From Chloroflexota bacterium (GTDB lineage: Bacteria; Chloroflexota; Anaerolineae; Anaerolineales; VGOW01), in NCBI GenBank assembly GCA_016875735.1, contig VGOW01000013.1:3564-67563 (forward strand): a stretch of DNA of 64,000 nucleotides, given 5' to 3'. The stretch's first letter is position 1. Each line of letters begins with the position of its first letter. This document shows positions 45,062 through 54,604 of this stretch, in pieces. Made by a program: the position numbers and the translations under genes. The notes beneath the pieces are model-generated. The model did not search any database and was not told the origin of the DNA. It was given only the letters and a program-made list of their open reading frames with translations.

Positions 45062-46156
45062 ATGCCCCCTCCCCATCGCCCCCCCTGGTGGCCCGCCAAC
45101 GAACCCTGGCCCCCGGCCCGCCCGCCGTGGCGGCGCGGCTGGCGGAACGGCCATCGATTCTTTTTTTGGCGCGTCGCCGCCATGTTCGCGCTCATGACTC
45201 TCTTCATGATGAGCGGATGCGCGTTGGCGATGTGGCTGGCGCTCATCGGGTTCTCGAATCTACCTTCGGGGGCGATGCCCTTTTTGTTGTTCAGTGGATT
45301 CGTGATTGCGGTGGTAGGGATGATGCTCATCGGGCGCGCGTTCCGGCGCATCGCCGCGCCGATGGGCGATTTGATGGAGGCCGCCTCTCGCGTGGAACGC
45401 GGCGACTATTCGGCGCGAGTGATCGAGCGCGGCCCGCGCGAGGTGCGCGATCTCGCCCGCGCTTTCAACGCCATGGCCGGGCGTTTGCAAAAAGATGAGG
45501 AACAGCGGCGCAAGTTACTGGCCGATGTGACTCACGAATTGCGCACGCCGCTGACGGTGATGCAGGGAAACATCGAAGCTCTGCTCGACGGTGTGTACCC
45601 GCGCGACGATGATCACCTCGCGCCGATGCTCGAAGAGACGCGCGTCCTCTCGCGGCTCGTCGAAGACCTGCGCACGATGGCCCTCGCCGAGAGCGGCGCG
45701 TTGAAACTGCACCGCGAGCCCACCGATCTTGGCGTGCTGATCGAGGAAACGCTGGCCTCGTTCCACGCTCAAAGCGACTCGGCAGGGGTGGCGCTGGCCG
45801 CGCGCATCCCGAACGACGTTCCATTGATGGACATCGATCCCGTTCGCATCCGCGAGGTGTTGGCGAATCTACTTGCCAATGCTTTGCGGCACACGCCGCG
45901 CGGCGGCGCGGTGGAAGTAGCCGTTTCGATTGGCGGCCGCGCCGTGACTGTTTCGGTGGCGGACACCGGGATCGGCATTCCGCCGGAAGACTTGCCGCGT
46001 GTCTTCGACCGTTTTTACAAATCGGAGCAGAGTCGGGGGACGGGACTCGGGCTGGCGATTGCCAAAAATCTGGTGGCGGCGCACGGCGGGGAGATCGTGG
46101 CCGAGAGTCCGCCGGGCGGCGGCGCGACGATTCGATTTGCCCTGCCAATAGTATGA
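45062..46156 (+). CDS. Sensor histidine kinase (HAMP-HisKA-HATPase)
   Basis: 'ADVTHELRTPLT', 'DTGIGIP', 'GTGLGLAIAK'. Pro/Trp-rich N-terminus. An alternative TTG start is at 45053. Confidence 0.88.
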   Translation: MPPPHRPPWWPANEPWPPARPPWRRGWRNGHRFFFWRVAAMFALMTLFMMSGCALAMWLALIGFSNLPSGAMPFLLFSGFVIAVVGMMLIGRAFRRIAAPMGDLMEAASRVERGDYSARVIERGPREVRDLARAFNAMAGRLQKDEEQRRKLLADVTHELRTPLTVMQGNIEALLDGVYPRDDDHLAPMLEETRVLSRLVEDLRTMALAESGALKLHREPTDLGVLIEETLASFHAQSDSAGVALAARIPNDVPLMDIDPVRIREVLANLLANALRHTPRGGAVEVAVSIGGRAVTVSVADTGIGIPPEDLPRVFDRFYKSEQSRGTGLGLAIAKNLVAAHGGEIVAESPPGGGATIRFALPIV

Positions 46157-46209
46157 AACCCTCGGCATCGTTTGGTAAAATTTACGGCGCACACCCAAGG
46201 AGGAGAGTC

Positions 46210-47490
46210 ATGTCACAAACAAAAAGCACCATCACTTGCGATCTCGAAGGCCGCATCGAGACGTACAATCAAGGCGCGGAAGAAATTTTCGGCTACCGGC
46301 CCGAGGAGGTCATCGGCAAGAAGCGCGTGTCGCTTTTTTCGCCGGGGCTGATCGTGCTGGGGCACGTCGGCGCGTGGCTGAAGACGGCGCGCGAGCAGGG
46401 CGAGTACGAAGGCCGCACAGTGTTTGTGGGCAAAGATGGCAAACCCTTCGCCGCTGAGATTCGAATCACGCCGACGTTCAGAGACGGGCAGCAGATCGGT
46501 TATTGCGGGGTGACGACGCCGCTGGATGCGCCAGCGGAAAGCGTGATGCCGGAAAGCAGCTTCATGACCCAAGTGTTTGCGTGGCTGGTGATCATGCGCC
46601 TGCCGTTCCTCACGGCGACTTTGGTGCCGGTGCTCATCGGCGCGGCGTGGGTGGCGGCCAAAGGACTCGCGTCGCCGTTCCCGTGGCTGCTGTTCGCGCT
46701 CACGATGGTGGGCGCGTGCGCTCTGCACGTTGCGGCCAACACATTCAACGATTACTTCGATTGGACGAGCGGCACAGACAAAGTGAACAACGCTTACTTC
46801 CAGCCCTATTCGGGCGGCAGCCGCTCAATGGAACTGGGCTTGATTTCCGAGCGAGGGATGCTGACCGTGGGGCTGGTGTCGCTGGCGATTGCCAGCGCGA
46901 TGGGGCTGGTGGTGATGTCCCTCATCCGCCAACCGGCGCTCGTGCTGTTCGGCGCGGCGGGCGCGTTCTCGGCCTTCTTTTACACTGCGCCTCCTCTGCG
47001 ATTGGCCGCGCGCAAAGGTTTGGGTGAGTTGTTCATCGGGCTGAACTTTGGGCCGTTGATCACGGCAGGCACGGTGATGGCGCTGACGGGGCGCGTGGCG
47101 TGGCAGGATTTTGTGATCGGCCTGCCGGTGGGACTCCTCACTACCGCCATTCTGTGGATCAACCAATTCCCCGATGAGGACTCGGATCGGGTGAGCGGCA
47201 AGCATAATTTGGTGGTGGTGCTGGGCAAAGAACGGGCGCGGTGGGGGTATGTGGCGCTGATGGCCGCCGCCTTCGGAATCGGCGCGGCGGGCGCGGTGAT
47301 GGGCGTGTTCCCGTTGGGAGCGCTGGCAATTTTGGGCGGCCTGCCTTTGGCCGTCTCGGCTTCGCGCACCCTCTTCCGCCATTACGCCGATCGCGAATTG
47401 GTGTCGGCCAACGCCGCGACGATCAATCTGCAGCTTGTCGCCGGAATGCTGATGGCGGCGGGGATTCTTGCGAGCAAGTGGGCGGGGTAA
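46210..47490 (+). CDS. PAS domain fused to a UbiA-superfamily (MenA-like) prenyltransferase
   Basis: ATG after 'aaggaggagagtc'. Residues 1-105 are PAS-like ('ITCDLEGRIETYNQGAEEIFGYRPEEVIGK'). These are followed by 8-9 TM segments with 'NTFNDYFDWTSGTD'. Confidence 0.75.
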   Translation: MSQTKSTITCDLEGRIETYNQGAEEIFGYRPEEVIGKKRVSLFSPGLIVLGHVGAWLKTAREQGEYEGRTVFVGKDGKPFAAEIRITPTFRDGQQIGYCGVTTPLDAPAESVMPESSFMTQVFAWLVIMRLPFLTATLVPVLIGAAWVAAKGLASPFPWLLFALTMVGACALHVAANTFNDYFDWTSGTDKVNNAYFQPYSGGSRSMELGLISERGMLTVGLVSLAIASAMGLVVMSLIRQPALVLFGAAGAFSAFFYTAPPLRLAARKGLGELFIGLNFGPLITAGTVMALTGRVAWQDFVIGLPVGLLTTAILWINQFPDEDSDRVSGKHNLVVVLGKERARWGYVALMAAAFGIGAAGAVMGVFPLGALAILGGLPLAVSASRTLFRHYADRELVSANAATINLQLVAGMLMAAGILASKWAG

Positions 47491-47520: not shown

Positions 47521-47555
47521 CGCGCCGACTCAACCGAGTCGGCGAGATCGTTTTG
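47521..47555 (+). terminator. Possible intrinsic terminator after the PAS-prenyltransferase gene
   Basis: 'cgccgactc aacc gagtcggcg', followed after 7 nt by 'gtttt'. Confidence 0.35.
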
Positions 47556-47564
47556 CCGATTGAC

Positions 47565-48308
47565 TCACCGTGCCGCAGTGAAATCGGCGAACGTTTTGCC
47601 TTGGAGAAAATCGGGAAAAGTGTAAATGCCGTTGAGTTGCAGAAAACATCTGCCGGGAAATTTGGCCCAGCCGCGAGAGAGGCCGATGCGCAGATAAACG
47701 TCTTTGCGCTTGAGCAGTTTGGTCAGGTCGGCGGCAATTTGTGGCGGGGTGCGCTCCTCGGTGCGTTGCGAAGAACAGAAATAGTTCCATGTAAGGTCGG
47801 TGATTTTCAGCCGATAGTATTGGTCTTCGCTGTCGAAGAACCCGAGTCGATAGTTCCATGCATTGTCTTCGCCCTGCTCGTAGAATACTTGACGGATCGC
47901 TTTGGGCCGAATGGCGCCAACCGAGCGCGGACCCTCGCCGTCGTTGACGTAGAAGCCGGGGTTGCGCTGAATGGGCTGCTCGAAGATTTCGGCCACGCTG
48001 CCGAAGCATGATCTGTCGAGTAGACGGCGTTTCTGTTCATCATTGAGCGCGCGCACGAACCGAACCGACGCGGGATCGTAAACATGATCCTCCGAATGCG
48101 GCGGTTTGGGGGTGTGCCGAATCAACTCAAACTCAACAGCCGCGAATGGAAAAATGATCGCTTTGCCGCCCGCTTTCAGCGCGCGCTCGGGGATGCCGGG
48201 CGGAGGCAGAACCGGGCGGATGCAATTCCCTTCGCCGTCGTATCCGGCGATGCACACTGCGCCGCGCTGCATCCGAGTCAGATCGGTGATGGCCAGCAGT
48301 TTCTTCAT
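47565..48308 (-). CDS. Hypothetical protein, third gene of the DUF488 operon
   Basis: 247 aa from 'MKKLLAITDLTRMQRGAVCIAGYDGEGNCIRPVLPP'. ATGA overlap with the upstream DUF488 stop. I could not place it in any family. Confidence 0.6.
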   Translation of the reverse strand: MKKLLAITDLTRMQRGAVCIAGYDGEGNCIRPVLPPPGIPERALKAGGKAIIFPFAAVEFELIRHTPKPPHSEDHVYDPASVRFVRALNDEQKRRLLDRSCFGSVAEIFEQPIQRNPGFYVNDGEGPRSVGAIRPKAIRQVFYEQGEDNAWNYRLGFFDSEDQYYRLKITDLTWNYFCSSQRTEERTPPQIAADLTKLLKRKDVYLRIGLSRGWAKFPGRCFLQLNGIYTFPDFLQGKTFADFTAAR

Positions 48309-48745
48309 AGATGAAAGATTTCCACATTCGGCCAATGAGTTGCAATACGCTCGGCGACCAGTCGGCGGTGGCACTGTTCGGGCGTGGCTTCACTGCACAG
48401 CAGGCACGACGGCATCGATTCGAAGCGGGAGCGATCCAGCGAGTCGGGCATGCCGCGCTCATCCATCAACTGCTCAAACCGCATCACGTAACGCGGCCAG
48501 TCGCCGTCGGCGCGATAATCTTTGAGAATCTCTTTTGTTGGGGCGAGGAGGGGGAGATGGATATACTCGCAACGGTCAGCCAACTCCCGAAGCAAGTAGG
48601 GCAGATCATCCTGCTTGGCAAAACCGGAGAGCTGTCCGCCAGGATTGACGCGAATATCCACCAACCGCCGGACGCCATTCCGGTGCAACAACGTAAAGAA
48701 TGACTCGGCTGTTTTCTGAGTGAAACCTATCGTGTAGAGTTTCAT
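48305..48745 (-). CDS. DUF488 family protein
   Basis: 146 aa. 'MKLYTIGFT', 'LVDIRVNP', 'CSEATPEQCHRRLVAERI'. Confidence 0.8.
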   Translation of the reverse strand: MKLYTIGFTQKTAESFFTLLHRNGVRRLVDIRVNPGGQLSGFAKQDDLPYLLRELADRCEYIHLPLLAPTKEILKDYRADGDWPRYVMRFEQLMDERGMPDSLDRSRFESMPSCLLCSEATPEQCHRRLVAERIATHWPNVEIFHL

Positions 48746-48754
48746 CGCGCCCCG

Positions 48755-49300
48755 CTAAAACAACGATGGCTGTTCTGCCTCTTCCTGTCTGTCCACCGAA
48801 TCGAGAATAGATGCCGATCCAATGACATTGCCGTCGCCTCGGATGTGCCGAACATTCACGTCGGGGTGCTCCCGCATAATGTGCTTGGCAATGAGGTGAT
48901 GTCGGTGGCATTGAGCCGGGTTCTCCTCACTGCACATGATCGCCGTCGTCTGCTCGTCCGCCATTTCAATCAAGCGCTGAACACCCTTGATAAACCATTC
49001 GCGCTTCATCACTTCGGAGTAATCCACCTCATGGAGGTAATCTGCGCCTTCAGGGGGCAGCGCCCGGCTCTTGTAACAGCTGGGGTCGGGGGGACGCCCG
49101 CCGAGAAACTTTCCGGCGAACGCGTATTGAATGCCGCGCTGGGACAATGCTTGCTCAACATTCTCTTTATTGAACTGCGGATTGTGGCGGCTGAAGGGCG
49201 CGGTGCGCACGTCCACCAATGTCATCACGCCGTTGTCCTCAAGCAGGCGTATGAACTTCTCGATTGAGTGATTGCTATGGCCAATGGTGAGAAGTTTCAT
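48755..49300 (-). CDS. DUF488 family protein
   Basis: Start at 'MKLLTIGHSNHS' (49300). 'LVDVRTAPFSRHNPQF', 'CSEENPAQCHRHHLIAKHI'. Confidence 0.8.
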   Translation of the reverse strand: MKLLTIGHSNHSIEKFIRLLEDNGVMTLVDVRTAPFSRHNPQFNKENVEQALSQRGIQYAFAGKFLGGRPPDPSCYKSRALPPEGADYLHEVDYSEVMKREWFIKGVQRLIEMADEQTTAIMCSEENPAQCHRHHLIAKHIMREHPDVNVRHIRGDGNVIGSASILDSVDRQEEAEQPSLF

Positions 49301-49312
49301 GCGGGCATTGTA
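49301..49312 (-). promoter_or_regulatory. TACAAT-N6-ATG: candidate leaderless promoter of the DUF488 operon
   Basis: Minus strand reads 'ttggat tacaat gcccgc ATG'. Confidence 0.35.
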
Positions 49313-49342
49313 ATCCAACAAGACCGAAACACACAACGCCAA

Positions 49343-52142: not shown

Positions 52143-52222
52143 GGGGATTATCCTTTCGAGCCACACAGGGGCCCTTGAGATATGAGTGGCGAGATTATAG
52201 CACTCATCGGAGATCGCTTGGC

Positions 52223-52606
52223 GTGACGAAATTCATTCTCATCGGCGTCGGCGGATTTGTCGGCGCATTGCTTCGCTATTACGTCAGCGGCTGGATTCAG
52301 CAAATGGCGAAGGATGTCGGTTTCCTGTGGGGCACGTTGATCGTCAACCTCAGCGGGTGCCTCGCCATCGGCCTCTTCTCGTATTTGGCCGACGCGCGCG
52401 GCGTGTTCACCGCCGAGTCTCGCGCCTTTGTTTTCATCGGCGTCATGGGCGCATACACAACCTTCTCGACTTTCGGCAACGAGACGATGGCGCTGTTCCG
52501 CGACGGCGAAAACGGGTTGGCGCTGGCGAATGCGGGCGCGCATGTGCTGTTGGGGTTGGGCGCGGTGTGGGCCGGGCGCGCGTTGGCAAATCTGATCTGG
52601 AGTTGA
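52223..52606 (+). CDS. crcB: Fluoride channel CrcB
   Basis: GTG at 52223. '[12 protein letters not shown]', 'GAYTTFSTF'. Confidence 0.85.
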
Positions 52607-52610
52607 GGCA

Positions 52611-52949
52611 ATGGTGCTACCCGAAGAAAGTTATCTTTTGCGAATCTTCATCGGCGACAGTGACCGGCACGAAGGGCGGCCCCTGTACGAGTGGATTGTG
52701 ATGGAGGCTCGCCGGAGCGGGCTGGCCGGAGCCACCGTGTTGAGGGGCATGATGGGCTTCGGCGCGCACAGCCGCATCCACACGGCCAAGATCGAACGAC
52801 TCTCGGATGATCTGCCCGTCGTCGTCGAAATCGTGGACGCGCGCGAGAAACTAGAAGCCTTCCTCGACGGAATCGACGGCGCGATTCACGAAGGCGTGGC
52901 GACGATGGAAAAAGCGCAAGTGAAGTTCTATCGAAGCGGGAAGAAGTGA
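52611..52949 (+). CDS. DUF190 family protein (frequent crcB neighbour)
   Basis: 112 aa. 'LLRIFIGDSDRHEGRPLYEWIV..ARRSGLAGATVLRGMMGFG'. Confidence 0.8.
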   Translation: MVLPEESYLLRIFIGDSDRHEGRPLYEWIVMEARRSGLAGATVLRGMMGFGAHSRIHTAKIERLSDDLPVVVEIVDAREKLEAFLDGIDGAIHEGVATMEKAQVKFYRSGKK

Positions 52950-53447
52950 ATGACTCGCAAAATCAGCATGGCCGAGGGGTCAAAGGTTGCCGAACGCGCT
53001 TCCATCGAGATCGAGGCGTGGTTGCGCGAGTGGCCCGGCACGGTGAACGTGGAAAACGTGGAAGGCGACCCGGAGTATCAAGCCAAAGACATTGATTTGC
53101 TGTGGGCGACGGTCAGCCGTGATTACACCATCGAGATCAAAGCCGACCGCTGGCACGGCACGGGCAACTTTTTCTTCGAGACGATGAGCAACAAAGAGAA
53201 GGGCACGCCCGGCTGTTTTCTGTACACTGAAGCCGATTTTCTTTTCTACTATTTCACCGAGCCGCGCACGCTCTACATCCTGCCCATGCCTCGCGCCCGG
53301 CAGTGGTTTGAGGCGAACATCGAGCGGTTTGCCGAACGGGAGACGACCACGCCCGCTGGCAGTGAGCATTACACGACGGTGGGGCGGCTGGTGCCGATTG
53401 AGACAGTGCTGAAAGAGGTAAGAGGGGTGAAGGTGAAGCAGTTGTAA
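52950..53447 (+). CDS. Hypothetical protein with a PD-(D/E)xK-like nuclease motif
   Basis: 165 aa. 'KDIDLLW...YTIEIKADRW' fits D..(E)xK. The start abuts the DUF190 stop (TGAATG). Confidence 0.45.
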   Translation: MTRKISMAEGSKVAERASIEIEAWLREWPGTVNVENVEGDPEYQAKDIDLLWATVSRDYTIEIKADRWHGTGNFFFETMSNKEKGTPGCFLYTEADFLFYYFTEPRTLYILPMPRARQWFEANIERFAERETTTPAGSEHYTTVGRLVPIETVLKEVRGVKVKQL

Positions 53448-53626: not shown

Positions 53627-54604
53627 ATGAACCAGATTTACCATCACTCGTGCGAAAATATGCGCGAGGTAAAAAATGACTCTGTTGCGTTGACTGTCAC
53701 CTCGCCGCCGTACTGGAATGCGATAGATTACGATATTCATGCTTCGGACAAGAGTCAATACTACCGGACTCGGAATTATGCCAGCGGCTACTCAGAATAC
53801 TCCGAGTATCTTTCGTGGTTGGAGAAGGTTTTTGGAGAAGTCCATCGCGTCACCGTGCCGGGCGGTTTCTGCGCAATCGTCATAGGAACAGTGTTATTGG
53901 ACGGCGCACATCACCCCGTTCCATTCGACGTCACCTCTCGACTGTCCCAAAAGGGCTGGGTATTTCATCAAGACATTATTTGGCACAAATGCACGGCTGG
54001 CGTAAAGCGGGCGGGGGTCACTATCCAGAAGCCGTATCCTGGCTACTACTACCCCAACATCATGACCGAGTACATTCTGGTCTTTCGAAAGCCGGGAGCG
54101 CCCATTTACAAAGATCGTTCAGCAGAGGAGAAAGACGCGGCAGCCTATCCCATCAATCACCTATTTACGATGGACACCGCCAACAACATCTGGCATATAG
54201 CCCCGGTGCCTCCCGACGTGATTGACCACCCTTGTCCCTTCCCCGAGGAAATACCCTATCGCCTCGTTCAAATGTACTCTTACCCCGGCGATGTCGTTCT
54301 TGATCCGTTCGCGGGTTCGGGCCAAACGACTAAAGTAGCCAAACACCTTCACAGGAAATTTGTGGGGTACGAGACAATAGCAAAGTACGTGACGCTGGCA
54401 GAGAAGCGTCTCAAGGAGCCGCTCTCGATACGTCCCAAACAGTTGATCGCGACTTTCGAGAAAATCGCCTTTGACGAGCCTTCAGGAGCGGAAAGCAAAA
54501 CCGAAGGCGCAGCCCGCAAAAACGGCAAGAAGCGCAGTGCTGAAGAACCCGCGCAAGGCCGCTTATTCGAGAGAAGAGCTATTTATACGAAGACAAAATC
54601 TTGA
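53627..54604 (+). CDS. Beta-class amino DNA methyltransferase (N6_N4_Mtase family; SPPY motif suggests m4C)
   Basis: 325 aa. Motif IV 'TSPPYW' near the N-terminus and motif I 'DPFAGSGQT' near the C-terminus. Basic C-terminal tail. Confidence 0.85.
   Translation: MNQIYHHSCENMREVKNDSVALTVTSPPYWNAIDYDIHASDKSQYYRTRNYASGYSEYSEYLSWLEKVFGEVHRVTVPGGFCAIVIGTVLLDGAHHPVPFDVTSRLSQKGWVFHQDIIWHKCTAGVKRAGVTIQKPYPGYYYPNIMTEYILVFRKPGAPIYKDRSAEEKDAAAYPINHLFTMDTANNIWHIAPVPPDVIDHPCPFPEEIPYRLVQMYSYPGDVVLDPFAGSGQTTKVAKHLHRKFVGYETIAKYVTLAEKRLKEPLSIRPKQLIATFEKIAFDEPSGAESKTEGAARKNGKKRSAEEPAQGRLFERRAIYTKTKS

Follow-up and report, generated by a model that had tools for sequence, protein, structure and literature searches.

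DUF488 proteins form a large family, of which E. coli YeaO is a member. In the abstract of their 2023 study, Burroughs and Aravind reportedly predicted a role in conflict-related DNA-end processing for the RapZ-C-DUF488-DUF4326 clade, and they are said to have placed a DUF488-N3/DuOB system in the Rhodanese-phosphatase superfamily, a placement that was structurally unconfirmed here. The locus described in this study, a triad of genes A, B and C, is situated on the minus strand of a 64-kb stretch of contig VGOW01000013.1 from a Chloroflexota bacterium (hereafter the window). Its closest catalogued relative is PDC-M45, which belongs to a set of 145 untested candidates nominated by 'guilt-by-embedding' in BREX, DISARM and type I restriction-modification (R-M) loci, and whose cassette CAS_00153 is listed in the supplement as 'Assign as candidate PDC-M45' (Payne et al., bioRxiv 10.1101/2024.01.29.577857). 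A related arrangement occurs in Enterobacteriaceae, on Acinetobacter plasmids and in E. coli islands, where the gene after DuOB encodes an N3a-type DUF488 and the next one a second enzyme of the same clade, DUF4326, for which processing of the ribose-linked phosphates in ADP-ribose derivatives has been proposed (PMC9503650). A literature search on DUF488, DUF4326, PDC-M45 and YeaO found no functional study, text matches to DuOB were all unrelated words, and the CRISPR-adaptation phenotype of yeaO was not reproducible according to its own authors.

All three proteins of the triad could be assigned to described families. Against the PADLOC models, protein A matched PDC-M45B (E-value 1.9e-49) and protein B matched PDC-M45C (9e-53); protein C gave no match at E <= 1, all four PDC-M45A models included. 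In Pfam, C was recognised as DuOB (PF22557, 'Dual OB-containing domain'; 51 bits at a cut-off of 27, E-value 2.5e-13), with its residues 14-228 covering positions 11-210 of the 210 in the profile. The preliminary description of this locus had left the protein, of 247 amino acids (aa), as an orphan that fitted no family, which no longer holds. On a Rhodovastum plasmid the gene order is hypothetical-DUF488-DUF488, and the first gene matches both PDC-M45A (1.3e-78) and Pfam DuOB (4.8e-65), from which it follows that PDC-M45 is composed of DuOB, DUF488 and DUF488-N3a. One further genomic DuOB (L060) matches M45A weakly (0.001). Judged by these profile matches, the window triad is a divergent, order-permuted PDC-M45 member whose DuOB escapes the PADLOC models. 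It thus belongs to a family already catalogued and defined by computation. The same three families are present and the window genes are tightly linked on one strand; however, their order is DUF488, N3a, DuOB instead of DuOB first, A carries a C-terminal clamp motif that the canonical proteobacterial PDC-M45 proteins lack, and the triad lies among housekeeping genes of a chromosome, not in an island or on a plasmid. With its permuted order, its DuOB beyond the reach of PADLOC, its clamp tail (resembling the PCNA-interacting peptide, PIP, in archaea), its RecQ fusions and its vertically stable, non-island context, it is a distinct variant. The DuOB-DUF488-DUF4326 cassettes differ in their second enzyme, lack the clamp motif and occupy small plasmids or integrase-bounded islands; their DuOB is only about 19-20% identical to that of the window.

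Proteins A and B are paralogues with 27% identity (E-value 4e-13), and both exceed the gathering cut-off of 22.2 bits for Pfam DUF488 (PF04343), A with 88.8 bits (5.5e-25) and B with 75.6 bits (6.8e-21). The preliminary description of them as divergent DUF488 paralogues was therefore correct, as were the signatures it quoted, which read CSEENPAQCHR and LVDVR in A and CSEATPEQCHR and LVDIR in B. Protein B additionally belongs to DUF488-N3a (PF22751, 'Active DUF488-N3 subclade'; 40.4 bits, cut-off 27), so that PF22751 and PF22557 tie B and C to the DUF488-N3/DuOB system. Protein A scores 17.9 bits against PF22751 and is not in the subclade, yet it keeps the full catalytic motif. An NCBIfam search gave no family for A, B or C. 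In the predicted active-site segment of B (CLLCSEATPEQCHR), C114, C117, E119, C125, H126 and R127 are invariant, and across 58 orthologues of A the same is true of C..EE.P..CHR and D.R. Since the C...E...CHR segment, together with the D.R strand, is invariant in both paralogues, neither of them is a dead copy. In two genomes (L047, L048) A and B are fused into one protein, which points to a heterodimer. The family is represented by more than 7,800 hits from the B query alone, and B is strongly conserved, with 70-84% identity over its 120 best homologues. The AlphaFold2 model of B (predicted local distance difference test score, pLDDT, 86.5) is an alpha/beta domain that resembles phage DUF488 proteins, e.g. 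PhiPA3 gp174 (template-modelling, TM, score 0.60). Cysteine-based protein tyrosine phosphatases (PTP) and dual-specificity phosphatases (DSP), with their CX5R motif, share a Rossmann-like alpha/beta domain, a cysteine at a strand end, a loop and an arginine at a helix N-terminus; the DUF488 loop is longer, C-x9-R, with an embedded glutamate and a Cys-His pair. A second PADLOC candidate, PDC-M19A (models PDLC04504/PDLC04505), is matched by A as well as by B in its C-terminal half; in that protein a DUF488 domain is fused to a preceding N-terminal region some 90-150 aa long. DUF488 enzymes thus recur in more than one candidate system.

RefSeq gives relatives of protein C the name 'dual OB domain-containing protein'. 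A word-indexed search gave 330 DuOB homologues and a profile search 1,237 representatives at 50% identity; PF22557 was carried by 119 of the 120 listed homologues (exception P0053). The AlphaFold2 model (pLDDT 92.1, predicted TM score 0.90) consists of two beta-rich halves, and its best Foldseek matches in the Protein Data Bank (PDB) are RPA, POT1, TEBP-alpha, Teb1, CST and HIN. With E-values of about 3e-3 and low TM scores these matches indicate fold-level similarity only; modest scores are expected when two domains differ in relative orientation. That protein C is a tandem oligonucleotide/oligosaccharide-binding (OB) protein of the single-stranded DNA (ssDNA)-binder type is directly supported by this model, and the earlier guess of an OB-like nucleic-acid-binding fold turned out well. 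An internal repeat, ITDLT[RW], is found at residues 7-13 and 169-175. C19, R31, H71, E73, D74, R154 and D171 are invariant polar residues in the DuOB clade, and C19, R31, E73, S129 and R154 are kept even in proteobacterial DuOBs that are 19-20% identical; E73, within the conserved PPH[ST]ED motif, is invariant in these distant proteins as well. So many invariant polar residues hint at more than passive binding. DuOB shares the two-OB architecture of SSB/RPA-type binders, but it has no detectable sequence similarity to them, lacks the acidic tail found on SSB, and has more invariant polar residues than a plain ssDNA binder would need.

Several homologues of DuOB are joined to RecQ or to its accessory domains. 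One protein (P0284) contains a full RecQ (DEAD, Helicase_C, RecQ_Zn_bind, RQC, HRDC), two (P0272 and L033) contain the RecQ core, and seven (P0321, P0245, P0296, P0374, P0352, P0288, P0318) carry RQC and/or HRDC, some of these RecQ-module fusions with TPR or HEAT repeats in addition. The L033 fusion locus retains A (tail QQSLF) and B upstream. Other fusion partners are HEAT repeats (three proteins), Myb/HTH and a VOC/glyoxalase domain.

Co-conservation was assessed in species-representative genomes, which gave 79 loci. Genes of the A, B and C families stand side by side in about 60 independent genomes, mostly of Chloroflexota; the 79 loci belong mainly to Anaerolineae and other Chloroflexota, with a few Bacillota, Methanotrichaceae, Bathyarchaeia and Acetothermia and one Planctomycetaceae bin. 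At every locus with upstream DNA present, DuOB is accompanied by an A-type and a B-type DUF488. The order is A-B-C in about 58 loci, C-A-B in Bacillota, and in some Thermomicrobiales A-B is divergent from C. These loci directly support that the three genes are inherited together, and the autonomous three-gene module of the preliminary description proved to be strongly co-conserved. A conserved fourth gene was not found in the 79 loci, the commonest flanking family being a generic ABC ATPase (11 of 79); AlkD-like 'DNA_alkylation' genes adjoin the triad in several loci.

The most informative feature of the triad, missed in the preliminary description, is the clamp-binding tail of A. After a C-terminal linker the protein ends in ...EEAEQPSLF (tail peptide ...DRQEEAEQPSLF). 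Among the 58 genome orthologues of A the terminus nearly always reads (E)Q[LP][ST]L[FL], and of the 120 top-ranking homologues from metagenomes, 110 terminate in Qxx[LMI][FLIM]-COOH. In these 120 tails, Q occupies position -5 in 115 cases, the penultimate residue (-2) is L in 101, and 117 finish with F or L (-1). The motif occurs in none of 120 homologues each of B and C, and shuffled tails gave a mean of 0.17. We know of no prior report of such a tail on A. The bacterial clamp-binding consensus is QL[S/D]LF, more generally QxxLF, and PolC ends in QLSLF (PMC12309361). At the level of sequence, it is directly supported that A ends in a peptide matching this motif. As in the clamp clients PolC and Pol IV, QxxL[FL] stands at the extreme C-terminus behind a flexible linker. 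Clamp binding by A is a prediction, however. Its catalytic domain is a DUF488, neither a polymerase nor an established repair enzyme, and in A-type tails the second residue of the motif is Pro or Leu and the third is Ser or Pro. Three archaeal-type orthologues end differently (QKSLFDFV in L057, QYRLGDYAVTV in L073 and QYKLEDYGVAV in L095). Measured against the PIP box of PCNA ligands, Qxx(M/L/I)xxF(Y/F) (PMC1636371), these three tails, two of which are closely related, have Q, L and the first aromatic residue at PIP spacing, with a non-canonical last position. A dedicated metagenome scan for further archaeal orthologues gave one locus only. The QxxLF tail could also be a peptide like the C-terminus of SSB that docks on DuOB rather than on the clamp; this is less likely, because the archaeal-type orthologues switch to PIP-like spacing.

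The genomic context of the Chloroflexota-type triads is dominated by housekeeping genes. The 108 genes immediately adjoining them represent 106 Pfam families, among them gatA/gatB, iscS-like, glnA, ruvB, dnaA and tatC. No enrichment of defence genes was seen among these 108 neighbours, only scattered PADLOC matches, and those to DndA/SspA are generic cysteine desulfurases. No mobility genes were found around the Chloroflexota cassette. Searches with tblastn found nothing when the window DuOB was compared with plasmids, phages and IMG/VR contigs, or a Dehalococcoidia DuOB with plasmids. The triad is still linked to acnA where DuOB identity has fallen to 66%. Relative to locus L094, identities are 81% for acnA, 75% for A, 79% for B and 66% for C; relative to L092, they are 82% for UbiA and 82-84% for A, B and C. 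The cassette diverges about as much as its flanking genes.

Solo relatives of B lie in a different setting. The closest ones (about 47-52% identity, PDC-M45C/N3a-type) adjoin a uvrA paralogue on IncHI2 plasmids and stand immediately upstream of a plasmid uvrB in Aeromonas, Comamonas and Acinetobacter. They are surrounded by formaldehyde-detoxification genes (frmR, fghA, formaldehyde dehydrogenases), VOC and DUF3422. Plasmid-borne uvrA/uvrB with DUF488-N3a looks like an unrecognised accessory module of the nucleotide excision repair type on resistance plasmids.

Taken as a whole, the three genes are best explained as one independent transcription unit for a DNA-directed complex of the DuOB/DUF488-N3 family. 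We give a probability of roughly 45% to the reading that, in this Chloroflexota lineage, this is a clamp-tethered, ssDNA-guided complex for the processing of DNA ends or lesions with a role in genome maintenance. In such a complex A and B would form a heterodimer, DuOB would position it on ssDNA at a gap, fork or end, and A would attach by its QPSLF tail to a beta clamp that stays behind at a primer-template junction. Cysteine-dependent phosphoester or sugar-phosphate chemistry, carried out by the DUF488 pair via its Cys-His-Arg sites, could then act on a DNA terminus or a replication-blocking lesion. Through the clamp tail, the fusions to RecQ modules and the linkage to uvrA/uvrB, the function becomes directly testable, and these findings advise caution against reading every PDC-M45 match as immunity.

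Several points weigh against this reading. To our knowledge, no biochemical activity is established for any DUF488 or DuOB protein. Foldseek comparison of the B model with PDB folds gave no significant match, PTP, DSP and DUF442 phosphatases appearing only at E > 0.1, and PDB sequence searches with single proteins and profiles found no solved relative of B or C. Clamp binding by A is predicted from one short linear motif, whose third position is often Pro, which is unusual, and the second PIP-box aromatic residue is missing in two of the three archaeal tails. Transposases are reported to carry clamp-binding motifs too (PMC4549789), so that the motif is no proof of repair. The links to RecQ, VOC and AlkD are each confined to a minority of loci. 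The cassette is patchy across Chloroflexota and occurs in many different contexts, like accessory genes, and the window contains a putative type II R-M pair at a distance of about 3.7 kb from the cassette. Elsewhere, the canonical triad of Agrobacterium adjoins CBASS, TcmP/DUF5131, ImmA/HTH and an integrase, and the E. coli DuOB-DUF488-DUF4326 cassettes, present in 12 of 5,426 complete genomes, are located at integrase hotspots.

The genome-maintenance reading can be carried further, to a new replication-coupled repair pathway in which a clamp-tethered DUF488 heterodimer, guided by a tandem-OB binder that is sometimes fused to RecQ, would clear blocked termini and adducts (aldehyde- or formaldehyde-type damage, blocked 3' ends). 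Such a pathway would share ancestry with PDC-M45, and its motif would have switched from beta clamp to PCNA upon transfer between bacteria and archaea. In this full form the proposal is unlikely. Confirmation of the repair hypothesis would give replication-coupled repair a new class of enzyme, and would provide an example of one module that serves both genome maintenance and conflict systems.

The alternative that survives best, although somewhat unlikely for this lineage, is anti-phage defence, as the PDC-M45 label implies. DuOB would sense phage ssDNA or replication intermediates, while the DUF488 pair would modify or process phage DNA ends, or host DNA abortively; the clamp motif could give access to replicating phage DNA, and the mechanism may be shared with the one favoured above. 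The PDC-M45B and M45C matches of A and B, the confirmed composition of canonical triads as DuOB, DUF488 and DUF488-N3a, and the route by which PDC systems were nominated all speak for it. So do the CBASS, TcmP/DUF5131 and integrase neighbours in Agrobacterium, the integrase-bounded islands of E. coli, the patchy distribution, and the occurrence in phages of DUF488 proteins with a similar fold such as PhiPA3 gp174. According to Payne et al., however, the anti-phage role of PDC systems has candidate status only. The Chloroflexota clade lies outside defence islands and off mobile elements, is syntenic with acnA and diverges like its neighbours, and the window DuOB is missed by all four PDC-M45A models. 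Its clade-specific clamp motif and the RecQ fusions are typical of replication and repair clients, and solo B-type genes travel with uvrA and uvrB. In this lineage, genome maintenance is more likely than island-borne phage restriction. The preliminary description had suggested nucleic-acid modification, repair or defence; the area was well chosen, but the system had already been catalogued as PDC-M45, and the Chloroflexota clade shows no defence-island context.

An improbable alternative is that the substrate is a nucleotide-derived small molecule (NAD or ADP-ribose derivatives) or an RNA terminus (2',3'-cyclic or 3'-phosphate ends), with DuOB binding RNA or acting as a scaffold. Substrates of this kind have been proposed for other members of the RapZ-C/DUF488/DUF4326 clade. 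The replacement of the second DUF488 by DUF4326 in enterobacterial and Acinetobacter variants, together with the ADP-ribose proposal for DUF4326 mentioned above, would fit. OB folds bind RNA too, and DUF488 chemistry is only predicted. The fusion partners and neighbours are DNA-specific, however (RecQ, RQC, HRDC, UvrA, UvrB, AlkD-like), the structural matches of DuOB are ssDNA binders, and a sliding-clamp motif is sensible only on DNA. Very improbable is a mobile-element function, i.e. plasmid or island establishment or anti-defence with protection or processing of incoming ssDNA, of which the Chloroflexota copies would be remnants. It can draw on the DuOB-DUF488-DUF4326 cassettes of small plasmids beside rep, par and toxin-antitoxin (TA) genes, and on the Rhodovastum triad, which adjoins a giant SNF2-related gene in a neighbourhood of numerous small hypothetical genes; the Chloroflexota cassette, with no mobility genes around it, strong conservation of B and a stable acnA linkage, does not behave in this way. 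The earlier view of a duplicated DUF488 with a family-less orphan, forming an undescribed system, can practically be set aside: experimental characterisation was not found in the searchable literature, but C is Pfam DuOB, the triad is PADLOC PDC-M45 and RefSeq already names its relatives.

Coordinates of the triad, its signals and other features (window positions unless a contig is named)
Feature	Position	Strand	Remarks
Gene A, DUF488 enzyme, 181 aa	48755-49300	-	Pfam DUF488, PDC-M45B
Gene B, DUF488-N3a enzyme, 146 aa	48305-48745	-	Pfam DUF488, DUF488-N3a, PDC-M45C
Gene C, DuOB, tandem-OB predicted ssDNA-binding protein, 247 aa	47565-48308	-	Pfam DuOB
C-terminal pentapeptide QPSLF of A	48758-48772	-	predicted beta-sliding-clamp-binding motif (QxxLF)
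Predicted active-site loop of A, CSEENPAQCHR	48902-48934	-	residues 123-133
Predicted active-site segment of B	48365-48406	-	residues 114-127
Conserved PPH[ST]ED motif of DuOB	48087-48104	-	residues 69-74
C-terminal extension of DuOB	47565-47620		clade-specific
-10-like hexamer TACAAT	49307-49312	-	6 nt upstream of the gene A ATG
Terminator-like hairpin after the acnA stop codon	49339-49361	-	boundary between acnA and the triad
G+C-rich hairpin with T runs on both strands	47523-47544	either	between convergent gene C and PAS-UbiA
PAS-UbiA fusion gene	46153-47490	+	downstream neighbour
crcB (fluoride channel) and DUF190 gene pair	52175-52949	+	upstream of acnA
165-aa open reading frame	52950-53447	+	precedes the methyltransferase gene
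Type II DNA methyltransferase gene	53627-54604	+	PADLOC MTase_II, Pfam N6_N4_Mtase
RecQ core fused to DuOB	L033 9902-13588		
Solo DUF488-N3a genes	L084 7001-7432, L086 6001-6432, L096 6001-6432, L097 6001-6441		Citrobacter, Aeromonas, Comamonas, Acinetobacter plasmids
DUF4326-variant cassettes of E. coli	L090 7557-9270, L091 7588-9271		ffs/ybaA site and icd/e14 site next to mcrA

The three tightly packed minus-strand genes are present in the sequence as the preliminary description had placed them, with a 9-nt spacing between A and B, an ATGA overlap of the B stop and C start codons, and acnA and the PAS-UbiA prenyltransferase gene as flanks. The G+C content of the triad, 0.56-0.58, is slightly lower than that of the flanks (0.60-0.64). 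The hairpin between C and PAS-UbiA is a likely bidirectional terminator, as its T runs suggest, and with hairpins after acnA and after gene C the triad looks like a transcription unit of its own. The TACAAT hexamer upstream of A is a candidate promoter for a leaderless or very short-leader transcript. A TANNNT sequence 5-10 nt upstream of the A start was found in 12 of 38 orthologous loci, compared with 3.0 +/- 1.6 in shuffles and 1-3 at shifted control offsets, and this recurrence gives comparative support to the idea. The promoter proposed earlier stands in its position and recurrence, but a good -35 element is absent and a consensus sigma-70 scan calls no promoter there.

DuOB proteins showed some additional features. 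Those of the Chloroflexota type have a conserved C-terminal extension, 'TFPDYLxGKTFADF', which is missing from canonical proteobacterial DuOBs and might mediate contact with a partner. An additional domain of about 140 aa, rich in coiled coil, is present in some DuOBs, at the N-terminus in P0308, P0309, P0321 and P0343, and a motif '...YRVxRxxISWDExxLK...' recurs in the N-terminal extensions. Pfam gave no significant match for these extensions of about 140 aa or for the archaeal-type C-terminal tails (L050, L057); Sipho_Gp157 was rejected as an assignment for extensions and tails at an E-value of 0.056. One plain DuOB is named 'phage host-nuclease inhibitor protein Gam' by JGI, and the basis for this name was not found. 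The DUF4326-variant cassettes, in addition to the two E. coli sites, also occur on plasmids of 10-36 kb (L087, L088) beside rep, par and TA genes.

Among the neighbouring genes, the PAS-domain sensor fused to a UbiA-family membrane prenyltransferase, 82% identical in the L092 contig, is an unusual architecture that suggests signal-regulated prenylation. On the other side of the triad, beyond acnA, lies the crcB and DUF190 pair. An Rfam scan of the whole 64-kb window found no family, the fluoride riboswitch included, that reached its gathering score. The type II DNA methyltransferase gene that follows (MTase_II, 2.3e-67) lies in a region where the G+C content dips to 0.49-0.53 from about 0.60. 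The preceding 165-aa open reading frame has no family match, but contains a stretch, 'DIDLLW...YTIEIKAD', that is reminiscent of PD-(D/E)xK nucleases; by their sequence and composition, the two genes may be a small, horizontally acquired R-M pair.

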